From IMG/VR virus record IMGVR_UViG_3300033144_003548: a stretch of DNA of 64,000 bases, one strand, 5' to 3'. Under the pieces are notes generated by a model, which saw only the letters and a list, made by a program, of their open reading frames with translations, did no database searches and was not told the origin of the DNA. Below, in pieces: positions 12,555-60,911 of the stretch. The translations under genes were made by a program, and so were the position numbers. The stretch comes from a virus. Each line of letters begins with the position of its first letter. Positions within the stretch are counted from its first letter, which is position 1.

Positions 12555-12608
12555 AAAATAAAAAGGGGAGTCCAACACAAGAAAAATATCTTGCTTAAAG
12601 ACTCCCCT
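12555..12608 (-). terminator. Rho-independent terminator after tail tube gene
   Basis: AGGGGAGTC...GACTCCCCT stem followed by TTTTATTTT on the minus strand. Confidence 0.7.
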
Positions 12609-12668
12609 AATAAATCGTTGTACGATTTCCCTTACTATCTTATGTAAGCAATTGAACCTTATTCTATT

Positions 12669-13838
12669 TTATGCTACCGCACCGCTATATACAACGCACT
12701 GAGCATCATCAGACATAAATGAGAATGTAGCTGTCAATTGACCACCAACATTTGAAGTTGTACCATCTGACGTAATTCTCATCTTAGGAACTCTGATTGT
12801 CTTCAATACTGTAGCGTTATCTGCGGGATCTTTGATAATAACGTCTAGTTGAAGTGTTCTCTCCTCATATTCGTTTACACCAAACTCACCATAACCATCC
12901 GCATCGTTAATGCTGCCAGTAGTTAGTAATGACACAATCTCGTTGTCGGTATCCATAACTGTAATATCACCTGTTATATCGGGTGGGTCAACAACGTAAC
13001 CAACAACCGAGGTATTACCCATTTCCATAATTTTAGTGTTAGGGAACGTACCTCTGATCGTAACACTCTGAACCCTGTACATATGATTTGCACCAATCTC
13101 AACAGGAATATTCTTACCACGAATAGCAGCAGGAACTGTAGCATCTGAAATATTGCTCCAAGTAAGCACACCACTCTGAGTGTGATACACAGCAAGAGCC
13201 ATTTCAGTTGTCGCACCACTGACTGTAACTGTTTGACCAGAAACACTGTAACCAGTTCCCTCTTCTAACCAGTCACCATCAACAATCATACTGATAAGCT
13301 TATTACCATTCTTCAGTGCGTTTGGTGCATAGGTTAGAGATAGTTGACCAGCAACAAGGTTACCTGAATCAACAACCACATCATTCGCAAAATATCTCTT
13401 CTCACTTCCAGCCAGACTGTACTCTTCCGTACTTTCACCATCTACTGAGTAGGTTAATGTGAAATCAGTAACTCTCATATATTTTGCGTGAATGCACTTC
13501 AAATGCTCATTAACATCAGCTTCTTTGACATATGCAATCATATCGCAGAATTTAAGCATATTAACATCTACACCACCAGCAGGGAAAGAATCTGGATCAT
13601 AACCAGTCATAAATGAAAATATCTTGTGAGATACATCAAAAGCTTGGAATGTAGCAGTCACCTCTGGAACATCTGTTACGATACCTGCGTGACCTGGATT
13701 ACCAAGCTCGTTAATCGTAGTGCTAGGTAAGTTTGCAGGTATATCCAACCTTTGTACACGGTGAGCAAAGAAATCACCAGAAGGTCCAACAATTCTTAAT
13801 TTAGTATCTTTATAAGGCACAGCCACTCTTTTAGTCAT
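12669..13838 (-). CDS. Major tail tube protein
   Basis: Beta-rich, internally duplicated motif (HRVQ....TINELGN / YRVQ....KIMEMGN); upstream of chaperones. Confidence 0.8.
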   Translation of the reverse strand: MTKRVAVPYKDTKLRIVGPSGDFFAHRVQRLDIPANLPSTTINELGNPGHAGIVTDVPEVTATFQAFDVSHKIFSFMTGYDPDSFPAGGVDVNMLKFCDMIAYVKEADVNEHLKCIHAKYMRVTDFTLTYSVDGESTEEYSLAGSEKRYFANDVVVDSGNLVAGQLSLTYAPNALKNGNKLISMIVDGDWLEEGTGYSVSGQTVTVSGATTEMALAVYHTQSGVLTWSNISDATVPAAIRGKNIPVEIGANHMYRVQSVTIRGTFPNTKIMEMGNTSVVGYVVDPPDITGDITVMDTDNEIVSLLTTGSINDADGYGEFGVNEYEERTLQLDVIIKDPADNATVLKTIRVPKMRITSDGTTSNVGGQLTATFSFMSDDAQCVVYSGAVA

Positions 13839-42642: not shown

Positions 42643-42927
42643 GCCCTGTTGTAACGAAGGTGCAAGATGTATTGCTACGTGCTACCTTTTGCACGCAGGC
42701 TGAAAACTTTGAAAAATTGTCTAGACCAGTACGGGGATCACAACGTGGCGGATTATGTAAAGTAGGGGCGTTTTTTATGTAAACTAGGCGGGGGTTAAAA
42801 CTGGCGTGCTCTGAGACACTCTATAATCAAAATCCTGCCCGTTTTATCAATATGGGTATATTATACCAGTGAGAATTTACCACGCCCAAAAATCGCTTAA
42901 AATCGCTTAAAATCATACTCTAGGGTA

Positions 42928-42957
42928 TTGACAAGTAAAATAATTCTATGGTAAAAT
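42928..42957 (+). promoter_or_regulatory. Sigma-A promoter of the GGC/GCC-free gene
   Basis: TTGACA-18-TAAAAT with extended -10 TG; additional TATAAT at 42962. Confidence 0.7.
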
Positions 42958-43164
42958 TAGGTATAATTAAATAAGGTGGTATTGAGAATGAATGAATAAA
43001 CAAAGCTAGGTGTAAAGCTAAGAGTAAGCACCACAAAGCTATCAGTGGAGACACTGAATCCAGTTTGCTATACTGGTAATAAGTGGAGTAACAGAGATAA
43101 ACTCCAGTGTAACAGTAACAAAACTGTAAAACAATCTCAAAACTAAAATTGAGGTGATTATACA

Positions 43165-43872
43165 ATGTCTAACGAAATGGACAAGTCAACAAGCGGTAAC
43201 ACGGTAATTATATCTTCAACCGTTCTCGGTCAAAAAAGAGCTGAATATCAGCGACTTAAAGACAAGGGAATTGCTGAGGATAGAATAACCGAGAGAATGA
43301 CCGAGGATGCTCTCCAGTTCGGTATCACTCTTGAGAATTACCAGACACAGCTAAACAATCTCAAGAGCAAGTCAAGCGGTGGTGAGCAAATCGAGGAAAA
43401 GAGGAAAGAGCATACCGCTAAACTACAAAGCGAATTCCTTGACTACCTCGGTTATGCAAATGGGGTTACTCAAGTTGACTGGAAAAAAGTTCAGTTCAGC
43501 AAGGATAACTTCAAAAAGCTGGTAAAATTCCTTGCTGGTATGGGTGAAGCAACCGACAAGCTGATAACCTCACTTCAGAATACTGAATTTACACAGAAGA
43601 GGGGTAAACAAGCGTGGATGGTTATGCTTCACGCACCAGTCCATAATCACATCACGGATAAACCGACCAATACAAAGTTACTTGCTCCGTTTTGTGGTGG
43701 GTGGACTGATAAGGGTAGGTCGTATGACCAGTACGGTATCCGTATGGAAGCGTCTGGAGCAGCGACTTTTTACCGACCAGTTAGCTATGAGACTCCAGTA
43801 AAGACCACTGGACTTGAAGCACCAGCAAGCGATAATCCAGAGACTCCAGAGAATACCGACAATAAGAGCTAA
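43165..43872 (+). CDS. Hypothetical (candidate pre-early) protein, paralog of 47215
   Basis: GAGGTG RBS; own promoter; N-terminal similarity to 47215. Confidence 0.85.
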   Translation: MSNEMDKSTSGNTVIISSTVLGQKRAEYQRLKDKGIAEDRITERMTEDALQFGITLENYQTQLNNLKSKSSGGEQIEEKRKEHTAKLQSEFLDYLGYANGVTQVDWKKVQFSKDNFKKLVKFLAGMGEATDKLITSLQNTEFTQKRGKQAWMVMLHAPVHNHITDKPTNTKLLAPFCGGWTDKGRSYDQYGIRMEASGAATFYRPVSYETPVKTTGLEAPASDNPETPENTDNKS

Positions 43873-43942
43873 TCAGTCAAGGGTAAGGGTAGGGTAGTAA
43901 TACCCTACCCTACCCACTAAAAAAAACAAAGTGAGGTCAATT

Positions 43943-44086
43943 ATGTGTGAGCATTGTAATTTAGTCAATTGTCCAGTACTCAACAAAGCTGAATGTCCTA
44001 TCAATATCTTGTGGGCTGAGGCAGACAGGATAAGGGCAGAGACTGAGGCGGCAATCAAAGAGGCTGAGGCAATTATCGGCGACTGA
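43943..44086 (+). CDS. 47-aa Cys-rich protein
   Basis: Own translation MCEHCNLVNCPVLNKAECP...; GAGG RBS. Confidence 0.6.
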   Translation: MCEHCNLVNCPVLNKAECPINILWAEADRIRAETEAAIKEAEAIIGD

Positions 44087-44094
44087 GTAATTAT

Positions 44095-44128
44095 TGGGGC
44101 GGCTGAATAAGTCGCCCCACTTTTTTTA
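44095..44128 (+). terminator. Rho-independent terminator
   Basis: TGGGGCGGCT-GAATA-AGTCGCCCCA followed by T7. Confidence 0.85.
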
Positions 44129-44277
44129 TGCCCAAAAAGCAACATTATGTCAACTTTACATATAATTTATAGTGCGATCCAAGTTAGCTTCAAATTGAGC
44201 CTAAAAAGCTACTTTATGTAAAGTAGAGCCTAAAATTCACGCTCAAAGTGGGTCGCACTATCTACTATATGTCAAGT
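44128..44277. repeat. Cluster of four dif-like (XerC/XerD) 28-bp sites
   Basis: 11-6-11 sites with WTATGTMAAST arms; GGATCGCACTA/GGGTCGCACTA arms in inverted orientation. Confidence 0.6.
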
Positions 44278-44288
44278 AAAGCATCAGT

Positions 44289-44431
44289 GGCAAATGAGCC
44301 AGCGTGCCTGAACGCCAATTCTGGCAGATTCGCCAATAGCCTGAACGGCAAATAAGCCTGTATGCCTGAACAATGTGCCTAGAGCCTTGCCTGAACTGCC
44401 GTTGATGGCGAATAAGCCAAAAAGCCTGAAC
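44289..44431. repeat. Interleaved GCCTGAAC (x5) and GGC-N6-GCC (x4) repeats
   Basis: GCCTGAAC at 44306, 44339, 44364, 44389, 44424; palindromes at 44289, 44323, 44347, 44407. Confidence 0.85.
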
Positions 44432-44592
44432 AGCACGCCACAGAGCAGGAGCAAGGTAAGTTGGTGGCAGGATTTCAAATCGAGGTTACTCTCAGGCAGA
44501 TTTACCAGATGGGGGTAACAGAGCCAAAGCCAAAAGGCACGCCAAAGCTGCTGGCAGAACAACCAGCAACTCTGAACGTGCCTCGTTAGAGA

Positions 44593-45196
44593 CTAATTCA
44601 GGTTAAGCCATCCACGCTCTTCAGCAGGGATGGGGTCGCCAAAGTGGTCGTAGTCAGAACACCTCTGACAAATGCCGAACTCTAGGGTATCACCCCTAGC
44701 TGCCCTCAAAGTGTCAATCGTTCCATCTTTTCTCTGAGACAGCTTATGTCCAGCAGCACAAGCCACTTTGTCTCCCTGACATCTTGCGTTACCGCACTGC
44801 CAGAGACTCCTCATTAGTCACCTCCTTCGGCTTGATAGTGTCTTGGAAACTCAGCAGCCAGGTGCGATGCTTCCAGTTACGAGGATTGTCGGGGTCAGCG
44901 TGAGGAGTCTTGAGACAATATCCCTGCCGAGTAATCAGCAGAGTGCAACCACAAGACAATCCTTCAACTGAGTGCATCCTATCAGGCTGAAAGTTCCGAG
45001 TCAGCACCACTACTTCACCGTGAGTCGGACAAGTTCGGGTCAAGGCGTGGAATTTTACCACTTTCGCAGTAAACTCCATCGCAGGCGGAGCACTCTGCGA
45101 CTTTTTCTTGAAAGTCCACAGCCCGTTGTCGTCAAGCTCAAGGTCTGGATGTGGTGCTTCTGGATTAAGAGGAATAGTCTTGACTTCGCCGTGCAT
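44593..45196 (-). CDS. Two Cys-containing hypothetical proteins (44593-44814; 44789-45196)
   Basis: AAGGAG RBSs; downstream of promoter 45227-45255. Confidence 0.65.
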
Positions 45197-45226
45197 CTCG
45201 CTCACTCCTTTCTCTAGACTACCTCT

Positions 45227-45255
45227 ATTATACCATCGCCTTGTGTAAATGTCAA
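45227..45255 (-). promoter_or_regulatory. Early sigma-A promoter, GGC class
   Basis: TTGACATTTACACAAGGCGATGGTATAAT. Confidence 0.88.
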
Positions 45256-45468
45256 GTGTTTTGAGATGCCACGCAAAAATTTTTTCGCAGGCAAATCTGC
45301 CGATCAAGCCAAGCCGAACAGAACTCAGGCAAGTGTGCCAGGGCATAGAACGGGAGCGGTAGGCAACTCGCCCAACGCTCCCTTTGTTTAGTAATTAAAA
45401 ATGCCAATATAGTAACAGTCTTTATTTAATCGGCGGTCTAATCCTCCTTTCCTAGATTTGGCTCGCAG

Positions 45469-45983
45469 TTACTTGACTTTAACTACGATGCCATCCCTCA
45501 CCTCAACCTGAGCATACCACCTGTGAGGCTCAGGGTAATGAGGACCCTCAACGAACTCAGTGCCGTTTTGCTTGGGAGAACCAAGTCCTGGGGAATAGAG
45601 TCTGACCTCTTTCCCACTGGCGACTGCTTCCTTGAGTGCTTTTTTGGTCTTGAAGTTAGTATCAGTATACATTAGCCACCTCCTTCTTAGTGTGTTGGGT
45701 CTGAGCCATCTTCGGGGATACCGTTTACCAGCATAAAGTCCCAATGCTCTTTGAAGACTTTGCTGCCAGCGTTGTGCTTCCGATTGCACTTTTTGCAGAA
45801 GTAAGACTTGATGGTAGCTTTCTTAGCCATCTCCTCAGCAACAGCTTTGTCAACTGCTGCCTGACGCTCTAGGAGCATCTGACGAGTTGGGTGTGCCGCA
45901 TACCAATCTTCCTTCTTCCACAATCGACCATCTCGGAAGATGATGCCCGACTCTGCTCTAGCTCTATCCTTTGCTCGGCTCAT
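45469..45983 (-). CDS. Two hypothetical proteins (45469-45672; 45687-45983)
   Basis: RBS GGAGG; downstream of promoter 46020-46048. Confidence 0.7.
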
Positions 45984-46019
45984 CGGTTTTGCTAACCCCC
46001 TTTCCTCTAGGATACTTCT

Positions 46020-46048
46020 ATTATAGCAACGCCTTTGTTAAAAGTCAA
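46020..46048 (-). promoter_or_regulatory. Early sigma-A promoter, GGC class
   Basis: TTGACTTTTAACAAAGGCGTTGCTATAAT. Confidence 0.8.
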
Positions 46049-46294
46049 GGGGGAAAATGTACGCCAGAAGTTCACGCTCAAAATAAGGGCAAAACTGCCC
46101 TCAAATTGCCGATTAGGCGTCTCAGAACAGGTGGCTATACATTACGCCTAATGGCAAGCCAAACTGCCTCTTCGGCAAATCTGCCAAAAGGCTGAACAGG
46201 CTGCCATAAAGACAGCCTGTTAGCTCGGCGGGTGCGTGGCTAAGAAGTCCGAATCTGCCCTCTTACCATATTTCAGGTTATCAGTTCCGAGCCA

Positions 46295-46712
46295 CTACCA
46301 CTTAATCCACTTATCTTCTGGCTGAGCGTAGATAAGTGCCCTCATCGCTGGTTTATAGCCAGCTTTGAGTCCAGCCTCTCTCAGAACTTCGAGAGCCTCC
46401 GCTTTACCTTCGGCTTTGCGGAGATTGGCTTGTGCTTCTTTGAGATACTGGATGGTTTCCTCTTTATCCATTCTCTCCATTAGATGCCTCCTTCACTTTG
46501 AATAGGGTTACCTTGTTCTGCCCAGTTCTACGAAGGATGTAGTCTTTCTTGTTGCCTTCAAGTTCACATACCACCTCAACAGGGGTAAACGAACCATCCC
46601 GCTTGCCAAGTCCTTCAATAACCATACTATCACCTCCATTATCTAGTATAGCATCGCCTGCGTTTAATGTCAAGTAGGTCTTAGAGGCAAAAGGGATGTC
46701 GGTGCGTGGCAA
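46295..46712 (-). CDS. Two small hypothetical proteins (46295-46480; 46464-~46625)
   Basis: ORF track; hairpin AACAGGCTG/CAGCCTGTT downstream at ~46195-46221. Confidence 0.6.
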
Positions 46713-47129
46713 ATCAGCCTAAATACTCTGCTCTCCCACTGGTTCTGCTGTGGCAGAACTGCCGTCCATTCTGTGCGTGGCATTTAATATCACTTCTTAC
46801 TCTTGGCAAAGGCAAATAAAGAGGTAACAGAACCTACGGCAAACTTGCACGTAACGTGGCAAGGCAAGATTTCCTACATAACACTGGCAACGTTACACAC
46901 AGAGTAACGACACGGCGAAAACTTTGAAAATTTCTCGAACACAAGAGAATTGCCATTCAGATCGTTACGTCTCATGGCTTAATTCTGAGATTGTATCTAA
47001 TGTGGCAGTATTCTACAACACTCTAAGCATTTTATGGGAAAGGGATATTCTATGGCAGATATAGGAGTAACAGTGTTATGTTGTGTATGGCAAGGGTGAA
47101 GAATTTACTCCTTCGCCACGCACAAAAGC

Positions 47130-47214: not shown

Positions 47215-47751
47215 GTGGGTAAGACTCAAACAGTCGAAATCCAGCCAACGGTTCTCGGTAGGAAAAATGCCGAGTATGCTCGTCTGCGTGAGAAAGGCAT
47301 CGCAGAAGAGCGTGTTGTTGAGCGGATGGCAGAGGATGCAAAAGTCTTCGGCGTGACTCTTGAGGACTATCAGGGTCGTCTGGCTGAAGTTGGTCGAAAG
47401 ACTGGCGATGGTAAGCGGGCAGCTTTGAAAGCCCGAAAGGAAGCGGTGCAGGCGAAGCATCTGGAAGTCTGTTCGTTTCTGAATGAGGTTATCACCACAG
47501 GTCAGACTGACTTAGCCGCTTTCCAAACCTCTCTTAAAGAGTTGGCTGAGAAAGCTGATGGGTGGGTTCTGATGACCGCCTGTGAGAAGGATGGCTCGAC
47601 TGGGGAAGGCTTGTTTACCATCAATGACTCTGGATGGAATGACGGCAGCAACCGTTCAAACCAGTATTCAGACCGCCCTCAGATGGTGGGTAAGTCGGGC
47701 AAGCACGTTCCTCATCCATTCCTTATCAGGGGCATCGAGCAGGGGAGCTAG
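47215..47751 (+). CDS. Hypothetical early protein, paralog of 43165
   Basis: AAGGAG RBS, GTG start; TVLG.K.AEY.RL..KGIAE.R..ERM.EDA..FG.TLE.YQ shared. Confidence 0.85.
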   Translation: MGKTQTVEIQPTVLGRKNAEYARLREKGIAEERVVERMAEDAKVFGVTLEDYQGRLAEVGRKTGDGKRAALKARKEAVQAKHLEVCSFLNEVITTGQTDLAAFQTSLKELAEKADGWVLMTACEKDGSTGEGLFTINDSGWNDGSNRSNQYSDRPQMVGKSGKHVPHPFLIRGIEQGS

Positions 47752-47807: not shown

Positions 47808-47887
47808 GTGCCCTCTTTCTTCGGGCAAATCTACCAGTTGGGGGTAACAGGGTGCTGGACTTGCTCGCTGTGGCAAACGGGATTAGC

Positions 47888-47916
47888 TTGACATCCTCAG
47901 ATGGCGATGCTATACT
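47888..47916 (+). promoter_or_regulatory. Early sigma-A promoter, GGC class
   Basis: TTGACATCCTCAGATGGCGATGCTATACT. Confidence 0.88.
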
Positions 47917-56231: not shown

Positions 56232-57666
56232 ATGGACTTTGCGAGAATACAGGCAGAAAAAATGACATATGAGGGCAAATTAGTAGAGTGTGTTCGCTGC
56301 CATAAATCACCGTTTCTCGTAATAACGGTATTAGGAACAGTGGTTTATTTATGCCCCAACTGTCTCTACTTTGAAGAGCCCTGGGAAAGAGGGGATTAAA
56401 TGAAATCGGCAATTGTAGACTCAAAAAGTTTAGGCACAAACTGTTGGTCGCTAAAGAGATTTTGTGGCGGGAGATGTGATAAAGTTATGACCTGCAATTA
56501 CCCCGAAAAGCACACCTGCGAGGCGGTCAAATCTGAAATTCTCTACTTGGAGAACAGGCGAGAGGAACTCGTAGCGGAGTTCGGGAAAAGGCTTGAACAG
56601 CTTCAAGATAAAATTTCAGAGGGCATCAGAAAGCTGAGGGGTGAAGAATGAAATTTCAATTCAGGTGCATTGGCTGTAGCACAATCTTTGAACAAGACAT
56701 CGAGGGGGAGGCAGTGGAAACCTTTCTTGATGCTTTTGAAGCTGGTGGTTGTGAGATAATGCAAGGCTGTTGTCCAAAGTGTAGAGAAACTAAGAATGGT
56801 CTTGCCATCAATGAGTTACTTGAGGCATTACCGAGTGGAAAAAGAGTATAAGTTCTACGATGGTACAATCTTTTGGAAATATCCTTGTCCGAGATGTATT
56901 GGCGGGAGTCTTACTTGGGTGAGGGAAAGAGGCTTTGAACCATCGTTACACTGTATAAATTGTGGCTATGACCACCAACAGCAAAAAAACTTTGAAAAGT
57001 TTGAACGGAAATGGCTTAAAAAGGCAAGAAATCAGCTTCGGAAGCAGAAAAAACGGCAAGAGAAAGGGGTCAAAAAAGACTAATTTCTGGCGTATTTTTT
57101 CACATTTCCCACGCTCAAAACCTTAATTAGAGGCAATTAAATGCAATTTAGTGAAATGGCTATTGAGGAAGCGGAAGCAAAAAAGAAGATGCTTGAATGC
57201 CAGTGGGGAAAGCATAATGAGAAGCTTGGCATCGAGTGGATAGAAAAAACTCCAGAGTGTCAAAAGTGTAAAAATCGCTTTCAATGCCTCACTATGTCAG
57301 CAAAGCGTTTCAAGCTAACTGTGACTCAAACAATCTGGACTACTTATGAGGTGTTCGCCGAAAATGAGGATGAGGTAATGGAACTATTTGCCTCATTCGG
57401 AACTGACGAACCTCTTATGCGTGAATTAAAAAGTGATGGGGATGGCGGAGATGTGGAGATAGAGGAGTGGAGTGATAGTGTATAAATGTATCCACACAAT
57501 CTCTTGTCCTAGCAGGCTGTGGTGTGGTAAATGCACAAGTCCTGCCGAATGTCGCTTCGCATTACCCATCGTGGCAGAGGATGGGATGGTCAAAAATTGC
57601 GAAATGTGTATGACAAAATTTACTTGCTGGACTGAGCGAGAGCCAGAGAGAGCAATTATCTTATGA
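56232..57666 (+). CDS. Run of small Cys-rich proteins (56232-56399, 56400-56651, 56648-56851, 56796-57083, 57141-57485, 57472-57666)
   Basis: ORF track plus own translation of 56232; CxxC pairs. Confidence 0.65.
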
Positions 57667-58580
57667 AAACTTGGATGAATAAATTAGACCCTCTTTACGA
57701 GGGGTTGCCATTTATGGAAATTGAGGGTGAGATGATTTCTTACCCCTGTGTGGCAGAAGTGAAGCTGGATGGTGAGTTTCAATATATTATTAAGCGGAAT
57801 GGTATTGTCTATCTCGCTAACAAACGAGAGCACGGCAGAATAAGGACTGATATGCCTGTGACCAATATTGACATTCCCGACAACTCCGTTTTTCTCGGTG
57901 AGTTAGTGTGGGGAGCAGGCAAAGATTTCTATGATTTTGCGAGACATAAACTTGACCCTGACTGTAATCTTGGCATCTATGGTTGTATCAAATATGCTGG
58001 TAAGCAATTGTGGGGAAAGGCAACATATACCGAGACAAGACAATTGCTTGAGAGTCTGAAATTCTATACTGATAAAGTAGTGCTAGTCCCTGCCGTTGAG
58101 ATACACGATACTCAAGAATTAGAAGATTTCTTCAAACAAGTGGTAGCTAGTGGGTATGAGGGGCTGGTAATCAAACAGCTAGACTCTAAATACATAAATG
58201 GAAAGAGTTATCATTGGGCAAAAAAGAAGTTCCAAACTGAAGCAGATTTGGTTATCTGTGGTTATCAAACTGGAACTAAGAGGGCAAAGAATTTAACGGT
58301 TCTGGTCGGACATTTGGTGGATGGGGAAATCAAACCACTTACTCACGTTGGTGGCGGTTTTAAGTATGAAGAAAAAATGGAATTGCTTAGTGCTTTGCAA
58401 GGATGCCCATCCATTGGCAAGCTAAAGGATGACGTTCTTGTTGAACCTAAAATCGTAATTAAGGTAATTTACAATGGAGTAATATACAATCCTGATGGGA
58501 GCATTAACTCATTAAGGCATCCAAGATTTGATAGATTTCGCTTTGATAAAGCCGTGAAGGAGATAGATACAATAAAATGA
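57663..58580 (+). CDS. ATP-dependent DNA ligase
   Basis: EVKLDG, FLGE, YEGLVIK, W.KKK, OB domain, LRHPRF. Confidence 0.92.
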   Translation: MKTWMNKLDPLYEGLPFMEIEGEMISYPCVAEVKLDGEFQYIIKRNGIVYLANKREHGRIRTDMPVTNIDIPDNSVFLGELVWGAGKDFYDFARHKLDPDCNLGIYGCIKYAGKQLWGKATYTETRQLLESLKFYTDKVVLVPAVEIHDTQELEDFFKQVVASGYEGLVIKQLDSKYINGKSYHWAKKKFQTEADLVICGYQTGTKRAKNLTVLVGHLVDGEIKPLTHVGGGFKYEEKMELLSALQGCPSIGKLKDDVLVEPKIVIKVIYNGVIYNPDGSINSLRHPRFDRFRFDKAVKEIDTIK

Positions 58581-60155: not shown

Positions 60156-60911
60156 ATGGCGGATAGACCTATCTTCAAGGGTGCTATTTCGTTGGGTTCG
60201 TTCCTTATCCCAATGAGAATAGTGAAAGCCACAAAGGAGCACGATGTCAAATTCCACGAATATCACGCAACGGATTTGGGTCGGGTTGGCAGGTCAAAAC
60301 CTTGTAAGTCCTGCGGCAACATTCTGACCGAAGCAGACATCATCAAGGGTGTGGAAATTACCAAAGGCAACGTGATTTCCTTTACCAAAGAGGAACTGGA
60401 AAATCTCCCCATCAAGTCGGCTAAGACAATCGAGATAGACCGCTTCGTTAAAGCTGACGAACTCAGTCCTTTGATGATGGAAGATGCCTACTACGTTCTT
60501 CCAGAGGAAATCGGGGTCAAGGCATTTGAACTTTTTGTCAAGGGTCTGAAAAAGCAACGCAAGGTTGCTATCGGTAAAATCGTTATGAGGCAACGAGAGC
60601 ACATCTGTGCTATGCAGCCGATGGGTAGCGGACTTCTGCTTAATACGGTCTATTATGCAGATGAAATCAGGGATATGCCTCAAGTACCAAAGGCTCAGGT
60701 GGTAGATGATGAGGTAGAGCTTATCTGTCAAGTTATCAACAAATACACCAAGCCATTTGAGCACGGAGCATACACCGATGAATACACAGATGCGGTGCAA
60801 GCTCTGATTGATGCCAAGCTAAAGGGAGAGACACCTCCAGTAGCACCAACGGCTCAAGCTAAGGAAGCACCTAATCTGAAAGACGCCCTGACAGACCTAC
60901 TTAATAAATAA
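60156..60911 (+). CDS. ku: Ku DNA end-binding protein
   Basis: R.I.KGAIS.G...IP, DIIKG.E, IEIDRFV, YYV.P, VAIGKIVMRQRE, DE.R, D.Y, L.DAL. Confidence 0.92.
   Translation: MADRPIFKGAISLGSFLIPMRIVKATKEHDVKFHEYHATDLGRVGRSKPCKSCGNILTEADIIKGVEITKGNVISFTKEELENLPIKSAKTIEIDRFVKADELSPLMMEDAYYVLPEEIGVKAFELFVKGLKKQRKVAIGKIVMRQREHICAMQPMGSGLLLNTVYYADEIRDMPQVPKAQVVDDEVELICQVINKYTKPFEHGAYTDEYTDAVQALIDAKLKGETPPVAPTAQAKEAPNLKDALTDLLNK

Follow-up and report, generated by a model that had tools for sequence, protein, structure and literature searches.

Among the described systems in which phage early regions carry arrays of short binding sites, the operators and stoperators of cluster A mycobacteriophages are asymmetric sequences read by a two-domain monomer, as for the TipsytheTRex repressor (PMC9283540). 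In phi29, host Spo0A and Spo0J sites adjoin early promoters and origins (PMC2731898); in T5, a repeat- and palindrome-rich untranslated region, the injection-stop region (iss), adjoins the pre-early genes (bioRxiv 10.1101/866236); and in T4-type phages, promoter and stem-loop cassettes called PeSLs flank small shuffled early genes (PMC2839356, PMC4122927). Here we describe a new element of this general kind, phage early-region binding-site arrays, in a 64,000-nucleotide stretch (hereafter the window) of the uncultured phage IMGVR_UViG_3300033144_003548, which corresponds to bases 25924-89923 of a closed 138,618-bp contig with 40% G+C and ends overlapping by 97 bp. Palindromes of the form GGC-N6-GCC (box A), noticed at positions 44289-46763 of the window in a first-pass annotation, belong to a two-part, strand-polar element whose second part (box B) contains the word GAACAG, and whose nearest analogues appear to be the cluster A operators and stoperators.

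The genome contains 12 GGC-N6-GCC sites, ten of which are grouped in the 2,475 bp from 44289 to 46763 (binomial P for at least 10 of 12 sites in that stretch ~2e-16). The coordinates and sequences of these ten 12-mers were exactly as annotated, and all ten lie outside coding regions when gene starts are placed by Shine-Dalgarno sequences; in the 185-aa open reading frame at 44789-45346, the gene itself starts at 45199, and what precedes is an upstream extension. The consensus proposed initially, GGCARAWNWGCC, has 9 strand-wise matches in the window (at 7 of the 10 sites) versus 0.35 expected from shuffles. When a weight matrix built from the sites was run over the genome, scores of at least 14 bits were confined to 44285-46748, a density far above background. 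The region is rich in GGC and GCC, yet this richness does not explain the palindromes because a single spacing is favoured: between 44087 and 47214, GGC-Nn-GCC occurs 10 times at n = 6 and 0 to 4 times at each other n from 0 to 20. The refined box A consensus is GGCAAWWNWRCC, with invariant letters GGC and (G/A)CC, and the plus-strand reading of every palindrome begins with GGCA(A/G)A, most of them having GAAC after it on that strand.

Box B is represented by five copies of GCCTGAAC interleaved with the first four palindromes, again as annotated (44306, 44339, 44364, 44389 and 44424, with spacings of 33, 25, 25 and 35 nt); one further copy exists elsewhere in the whole genome. When the box A sites of this phage were pooled with those of five related sequences (55 sites in all), GAAC was present within 30 nt downstream of box A at 30 sites, against a background of 9%, and the gap between box A and GAAC measures 7-9 nt in 20 of these 30 cases, whereas the reverse word GTTC was found at 4 of the 55 sites only. 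Box B reads (C)TGAACAG(C)A; alignment on it gives the consensus C(T/A)GAACAG(C)A with no conservation further downstream. The whole unit of ~28 bp (A+B unit) is thus composed of GGCAAWWNWRCC, 5-6 nt and CTGAACAGCA. Since box B is located on the same strand as box A and on one side only, the element is asymmetric and polar.

Several known classes of motif could be discarded or found no support. Genome-wide, GAACAG and CTGTTC are present in only 57 and 30 copies, a bias without any switch between the genome arms, which speaks against a polar motif spread over the genome in the manner of KOPS or Chi. A sigma-54 promoter (TGGCAC-N5-TTGC) does not fit, the spacing here being GG-N7-GC, three bases too short. 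An extracytoplasmic function (ECF)-type promoter using box B as its -35 was rejected as well, nothing being conserved downstream of box B and the genome giving only a sub-threshold match to sigma region 2. An RNA element was dismissed on the basis that the region has no Rfam match, that the stems are only 4 bp long and that the variant found in one related genome (G002) breaks the pairing.

The element occupies a fixed place in the spacers between early operons. The window has a left arm transcribed from the minus strand (1 to ~42,600; tape-measure, portal, large terminase and ribonucleotide reductase genes) and a right arm transcribed from the plus strand (from ~47,100; genes for Ku and an ATP-dependent DNA ligase, together with many small orphan genes), and the 4.5 kb separating both arms, across which the sign of the GC skew switches, is the palindrome region. 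It contains three short leftward operons (46625-46295, 45983-45469 and 45199-44593), each with a near-consensus TTGACA-17-TATAAT promoter with a TG extension at its start and a hairpin at its end. The spacers follow a common plan: terminator hairpin, ~0-25 nt, A+B unit, second box A, 34-56 nt, -35 hexamer of an extended -10, sigma-70 type promoter close to consensus.

In the first inter-operon spacer (IG1), the promoter-proximal box A (45290-45301, plus strand, as are all sites below) is separated by 34 nt from the -35 of promoter 45255-45227, which reads leftward (TTGACA-17-TATAAT, TG extension), and the distal A+B unit (45328-45353; GGCAAGTGTGCC, 8 nt, GAACGG), which is kept in the matching spacer of the related genome G001, adjoins a hairpin at 45352-45382. 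In IG2, the proximal box A (46088-46099) precedes by 39 nt the -35 of another leftward promoter, 46048-46020 (TTGACT-17-TATAAT, TG extension), and the distal unit (46174-46199; GGCAAATCTGCC, then CTGAACAG) has its box B overlapping the hairpin 46195-46221. In IG3, the proximal box A (46708-46719) is again 34 nt beyond the -35, that of the leftward promoter 46673-46645 (TTGACA-17-TATACT, TG extension), and a second box A at 46752-46763 has no canonical box B; about ten GGCA half-sites follow on the top strand (46779-47100), between the divergent promoters 46673(-) and 47130(+). Further right, an A+B-like unit at 47824-47850 (GGCAAATCTACC, 9 nt, TAACAG) is located past the terminator of gene gp47215, 52 nt before the -35 of a rightward promoter (47888-47916, plus strand; TTGACA-17-TATACT, TG extension), with the same strand polarity as the units of the leftward spacers.

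In this phage and its relatives (five larger records, 544 kb in all), a box A is found 34-56 nt upstream of the -35 at 10 of the 11 strong TG-extended promoters of the early region, and no promoter of the left arms has one within 1.4 kb. The box A centres fall at about -75 to -98, without helical phasing, and the early promoters carry GGC in their spacer, e.g., GGCGATG before the -10. Almost all copies of a generalized box A in these records are confined to one early stretch of 1.3-3.5 kb and to one strand; the reversed pattern, used as a control, gave 0-1 match per genome.

Relatives were collected through the large terminase, the family of gene gp43165, the DNA pattern and the first rightward gene. 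The element is present in the matching place in the full genomes G001 and G002 (70% terminase identity), in the large fragments G003 and G004 and in a 5.5-kb contig (L133), in which the largest array is also kept, so that the motif is conserved in related phages. When matching spacers of this phage and G001 are aligned, the promoter and the A+B unit are the only parts in common. Genomes differ in their right half of box A: G001 prefers TGCC, G003 prefers AGCC, and G002 has TACC in 9 of its 13 sites (GGCA...TACC). Such genome-specific dialects fit a reader protein co-evolving with each phage. Neither a more distant phage of 149 kb (L259) nor the other carriers of a widespread 67-aa early protein have the motif, and this protein was consequently rejected as the reader. 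Scans of genome collections yielded, among the matches listed, no prophage relative, only noise, and a first pattern scan of viral contigs returned mostly chance matches in coding sequences. The phage GenBank collection contained no DNA match to this phage and a single terminase match with 23% identity.

Promoter plus leader are 79% alike over 34-48 nt between spacers, and gene content and orientation in the early region are shuffled among relatives (the gp43165 gene is inverted and a GIY-YIG gene has switched strand), as happens with PeSLs (PMC2839356, PMC4122927), which likewise are repeated spacers, composed of a terminator and a strong early promoter, beside small variable genes shuffled between relatives. 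The boxes could accordingly be passengers, without a dedicated reader, in promoter-terminator cassettes kept alike by recombination. We regard this as very improbable: between phages, the flanks have diverged and the boxes and the 7-9 nt gap persist, N6 is the sole favoured spacing, and the tandem array also exists where the promoter cassette is absent. Furthermore, PeSLs consist of promoter and stem-loop alone, whereas the spacers of this lineage have two additional conserved boxes, a fixed distance apart, between terminator and promoter.

The sharp spacing, the conserved islands in otherwise diverged spacers, the fixed A-B gap, the dialects and the lack of an Rfam match indicate that the sites are almost certainly a protein-binding element rather than an RNA element or a chance repeat. 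The initial proposal of a binding array for a dimeric protein therefore stands in its first part, given the extreme clustering, the sharp spacing, the islands conserved in five or six related phages and the fixed placement relative to promoters and terminators. Its second part is only partly supported: two-fold symmetry is not required, because the right half is TACC in 9 of the 13 G002 sites, and box B always lies to one side. Control of early transcription is the best-supported function because the element is tied to early promoters and terminators. The interpretation that we tentatively prefer, at somewhat less than even chances, is that the palindromes form one part, box A, of a two-part and strand-polar cis-element whose copies would act as operators or insulators for a regulator of early units, sequence-specific and probably encoded by the phage. 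None of the four functions offered in the first-pass annotation (repressor, origin initiator, packaging protein, injection-stop signal) is proved; a repressor or regulator best matches the promoter-linked layout, and an origin initiator keeps some plausibility, while no link between TerS and the sites emerged.

According to this proposal, a sequence-specific DNA-binding protein, probably encoded by the phage, would occupy the A+B units and the box A sites, one A+B unit being placed just past the upstream terminator and the second box A 34-56 bp upstream of the -35. Once bound there, it would act on the strong early promoters of host type, either shutting them off or insulating neighbouring units from each other, and its strongest loading site would be the 500-bp untranslated spacer with its array of four A+B units. 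The paralogous proteins gp43165 and gp47215 would be candidate readers by position only.

The comparison with the cluster A stoperators (L5 gp71) bears on this proposal. In both cases, many copies of a short site are located in intergenic spaces and near early promoters, and the site is an asymmetric two-part sequence whose orientation matters, here box A with box B on one side. The stoperators differ in number and distribution, with more than 20 sites genome-wide compared to strong sites all lying within ~3.5 kb here, and in orientation, since they flip with transcription whereas the present sites follow one genome strand, including at the two rightward promoters examined. They are also bound by a helix-turn-helix repressor, whereas the genome studied here has no HTH_3 match, in a search that did not include the L5 gp71 family itself. 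The phi29 early/late switch, with its p4 sites and Spo0A boxes, shares with this locus a divergent control region and regulator sites upstream of strong early promoters; phi29 also has regulator sites near its replication origins. It differs in the sequence of the sites, and no helical phasing is observed here.

Several observations weigh against a regulator of early transcription. No DNA-binding protein has been identified, gp43165 being without database match and its model showing only helical hairpins. The lack of helical phasing of the box A centres speaks against a face-specific contact with RNA polymerase, and promoters so close to consensus would seem to need no activation. Where a site accompanies a rightward promoter, in two cases (window 47824 and L255 6877), box A lies ~50 nt upstream and the A-to-B direction follows the genome, whereas an element oriented by transcription would be expected to flip, with the reservation that the sample is small. 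Finally, the largest array in this phage has no adjacent promoter. A polarity fixed to the genome and a promoterless array would fit an origin, a packaging or injection signal, or accessory DNA for Xer recombination about as naturally.

The largest array lies in the 500-bp untranslated spacer IG0 and comprises four box A interleaved with five box B in 145 bp, i.e., four A+B units and an extra GCCTGAAC. The box A sequences are GGCAAATGAGCC (44289-44300), GGCAGATTCGCC (44323-44334, with GAAC after an 8-nt gap), GGCAAATAAGCC (44347-44358) and GGCGAATAAGCC (44407-44418, followed by GCCTGAACAG), and the box B copies span 44306-44433, all on the plus strand. A weak box A variant, GGCAGAACAACC (44553-44564, plus strand), is present further on, inside a terminator-like hairpin (44542-44575). 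Another variant, GGCAGATTTACC (44495-44506, plus strand), is part of a 30-nt element, GGCA.AT.TACCAG.TGGGGGTAACAG, which recurs with 87% likeness at 44492-44521 and 47821-47850, downstream of gp43165 and gp47215, respectively, and carries the TACC form of box A that is dominant in G002. The 161 bp adjoining the array on the left (44120-44280) have 67% A+T, compared to 60% for the genome, and contain a 29-nt inverted repeat, one arm of which (44249-44277) ends 11 nt before the array starts.

Tandem A+B units, all direct repeats on one strand beside an A+T-rich stretch, recall iteron origins, such as the lambda origin with its O protein or those bound by the Rep proteins of P1 and F, which combine tandem direct repeats, an AT-rich neighbour and a gene of the same module. 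An initiator would then bind the tandem units and melt the adjacent AT-rich DNA, the promoter copies coupling early transcription to the level of the initiator. The orphan gene that always adjoins the array would correspond to the initiator genes that adjoin iterons, individual iterons can have an internal dyad symmetry, as in lambda, and some initiators read DNA with two domains, which the two-part site recalls. The minimum of the cumulative GC skew also falls in this region, but it coincides with the switch in gene orientation, and the skew, suggested initially as a check for an origin, is thus uninformative. The repeat period is irregular (24-60 bp), unlike that of iterons, over half of the sites are dispersed across 3 kb, as two copies per promoter, and no known initiator family was detected in the genome, in which neither Rep3 (Rep3_N) nor lambda-O type (Phage_rep_O) proteins gave a match. 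Altogether, an origin seems unlikely to us.

The polarity fixed to the genome, independent of promoter direction, could also denote a polar signal for DNA transactions: a pac- or cosB-like array for the terminase small subunit, an injection stop of the T5 type, or strand-specific nick sites. The resemblance to the T5 injection-stop region lies in a large untranslated region, rich in repeats and palindromes, beside short early genes with very strong host-type promoters. Two genes of this phage code for a homologue of Ku (Pfam Ku, E 6.5e-39; window 60156-60911) and for an ATP-dependent DNA ligase (57663-58580). Ku and an ATP-dependent ligase form an end-joining pair, and the mycobacteriophages Corndog and Omega circularize their DNA with such pairs; their presence suggests linear virion DNA that needs end joining. 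On the other hand, the region is ~10.6 kb from the large-terminase gene, the sites are distributed over several operon spacers and not at one locus, and transcription diverges from the region, unlike in T5, where the region moreover lies in a terminal repeat and contains host DnaA boxes instead of a new motif that is also present at each promoter. Such a signal therefore appears rather improbable.

The inverted repeat next to the largest array provides putative dif-like sites, the arm of the right one ending at 44277, 11 nt from the first box A, and box A is interleaved with TTATGTAAAGT arm-like repeats in L256 and abuts one of them in L133. The array could thus be accessory DNA for Xer recombination, by analogy with the plasmid sites cer and psi, which require ~180 bp of protein-bound DNA beside their core (PMC2409434). 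It lies directly beside the putative dif-like core but is not confined to it: 6 of the 10 sites are in three other spacers without a dif-like core, and G001 keeps the boxes without the arm-like repeats. The accessory DNA of cer and psi adjoins the XerC side of the core, whereas the array adjoins the XerD-like arm. A plasmid-type partition site meets a different objection, ParB (ParB_N) and ParA (AAA_31) having no match in this phage, whereas control genomes were matched. We give these two possibilities, Xer accessory DNA or a partition site, little credence.

The XerD-arm-like word TTATGT(A/C)AAG itself is found next to the box A array in 6 to 15 copies in each relative, some in one orientation and some in the other (L257 5061-5310 and 3672-4001; L255 2264-2323 and 3576-3641; L256 4843-4949), but not in the early region fetched for G001 (L258). 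The many solitary copies give it the appearance of a separate repeat family and not just of dif. In the phage studied here, arm-like repeats of the TTATGTAAAG type at 42753, 42775, 44145 and 44214 bracket the gp43165 unit (42890-44280), which is rightward in this phage and in L133 and leftward in G001, G002 and G003 (L011 5453-6305, L129 and L012). The bracketing repeats and the difference in orientation suggest site-specific inversion of this unit.

The three leftward operons are flanked by two orphan genes, gp43165 (43165-43872, plus strand) and its paralogue gp47215 (47215-47751, plus strand, between the IG3 and IG4 sites). A gene of this family adjoins the largest array in every relative, and the two proteins, already named in the first-pass annotation, are the best candidates by position; comparisons of sequence and fold give no support for DNA binding. 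For gp43165, no match was obtained in Pfam, PHROGs, the PDB (by sequence), Foldseek, VIA-align or the ESM Atlas. The family is rare (41 matching clusters among 1.84 billion representatives), and the predicted structure, in which three short helices are accompanied by one long hairpin of helices and a small beta region, resembles nothing solved.

The absence of a phage DNA-binding protein in the Pfam, PHROG and HTH_3 searches would be explained if the sites belonged to a global regulator of the host and tied the early promoters to host physiology, for which the Spo0A and Spo0J sites of phi29 provide a precedent (PMC2731898). The GGCAA...CC core and GAACAG are indeed kept across phages whose early proteins have strongly diverged. 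Nevertheless, the right-half dialects are easier to understand with phage-specific readers, and a pattern scan of 185,579 species genomes revealed, among the matches listed, scattered single sites in unrelated phyla and no host array. A host regulator is, in our opinion, not a probable reader.

A phage-encoded reader could be linked to a peculiarity of composition. The gp43165 gene contains no GGC or GCC in this phage, in G001 and in L133; G002 and G003 have one to three, compared to 41 in a 55%-identical homologue (L134). It is conceivable, if doubtful, that a phage protein that reads GGC, perhaps of the gp43165 family, has its strong sites in box A and would silence or insulate all early units except its own GGC/GCC-poor gene, which its composition would put beyond the reach of its product, making the protein a self-exempting regulator. 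One reader of GGC-based sites could, speculatively, tie together box A, the gene free of GGC/GCC and the GGC in the promoter spacers. The element in any case links three oddities within 5 kb, namely this gene, the GGC in the early promoter spacers and the dif-like repeats.

The early proteins of these large uncultured phages, possibly of Chloroflexota, are all orphans, and the element provides a precise, testable cis-code for their early control region; being short and conserved, with a clear architecture, it could be used as bait for its reader protein. If the reader is the adjacent orphan family, this would reveal a new DNA-binding fold and a new mode of organization of early phage transcription; if the site is an origin or a packaging signal, it would fix the start of replication or packaging for these genomes.

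Among the small proteins of the early region, none had a meaningful Pfam or PHROG match, and for the first rightward protein, which is conserved and 137 aa long, AlphaFold gave a model of unusable quality (pLDDT 39.5). Arrays resembling the A+B unit were encountered in two bacterial contigs, from a Planctomyces metagenome-assembled genome (MAG; JAEUIH010000160.1, L214 3170-3420) and a Puia MAG (L173 4875-4990). They consist of GGCAAATTTACC followed by GGAAC or TGAAC and of 29-bp tandem repeats of GGCAATTCTACCGAAC. The Planctomycetes array, beside an integrase-like gene, and the Puia array of 29-bp tandem repeats were judged to be unrelated elements; the similarity may reflect a wider class of two-part repeat or coincidence.

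Other short repeats are present around the divergent promoters. The sequence GTGCGTGGC has seven copies in the genome, including 46232, 46702 and 46773 on the plus strand and 47115 and 41028 on the minus strand; four copies, of which two directly abut GGCA sites, are no further than 0.9 kb from the divergent promoter region. G003 has four direct repeats of TTCTCTGAAGCC, ~30 nt apart, between its divergent early promoters (L129, minus strand, ~4760-4630), a sequence with one copy in G001 (L011 10008-10021) and none in this phage. Lastly, all relatives share a small GIY-YIG protein that stands alone (96-103 aa, with a weak match in Pfam), its gene belonging to a rightward operon in this phage (48365-48655) and to a leftward operon in G001 (L011 8603-8914) and G002 (L012 ~12590-12850).

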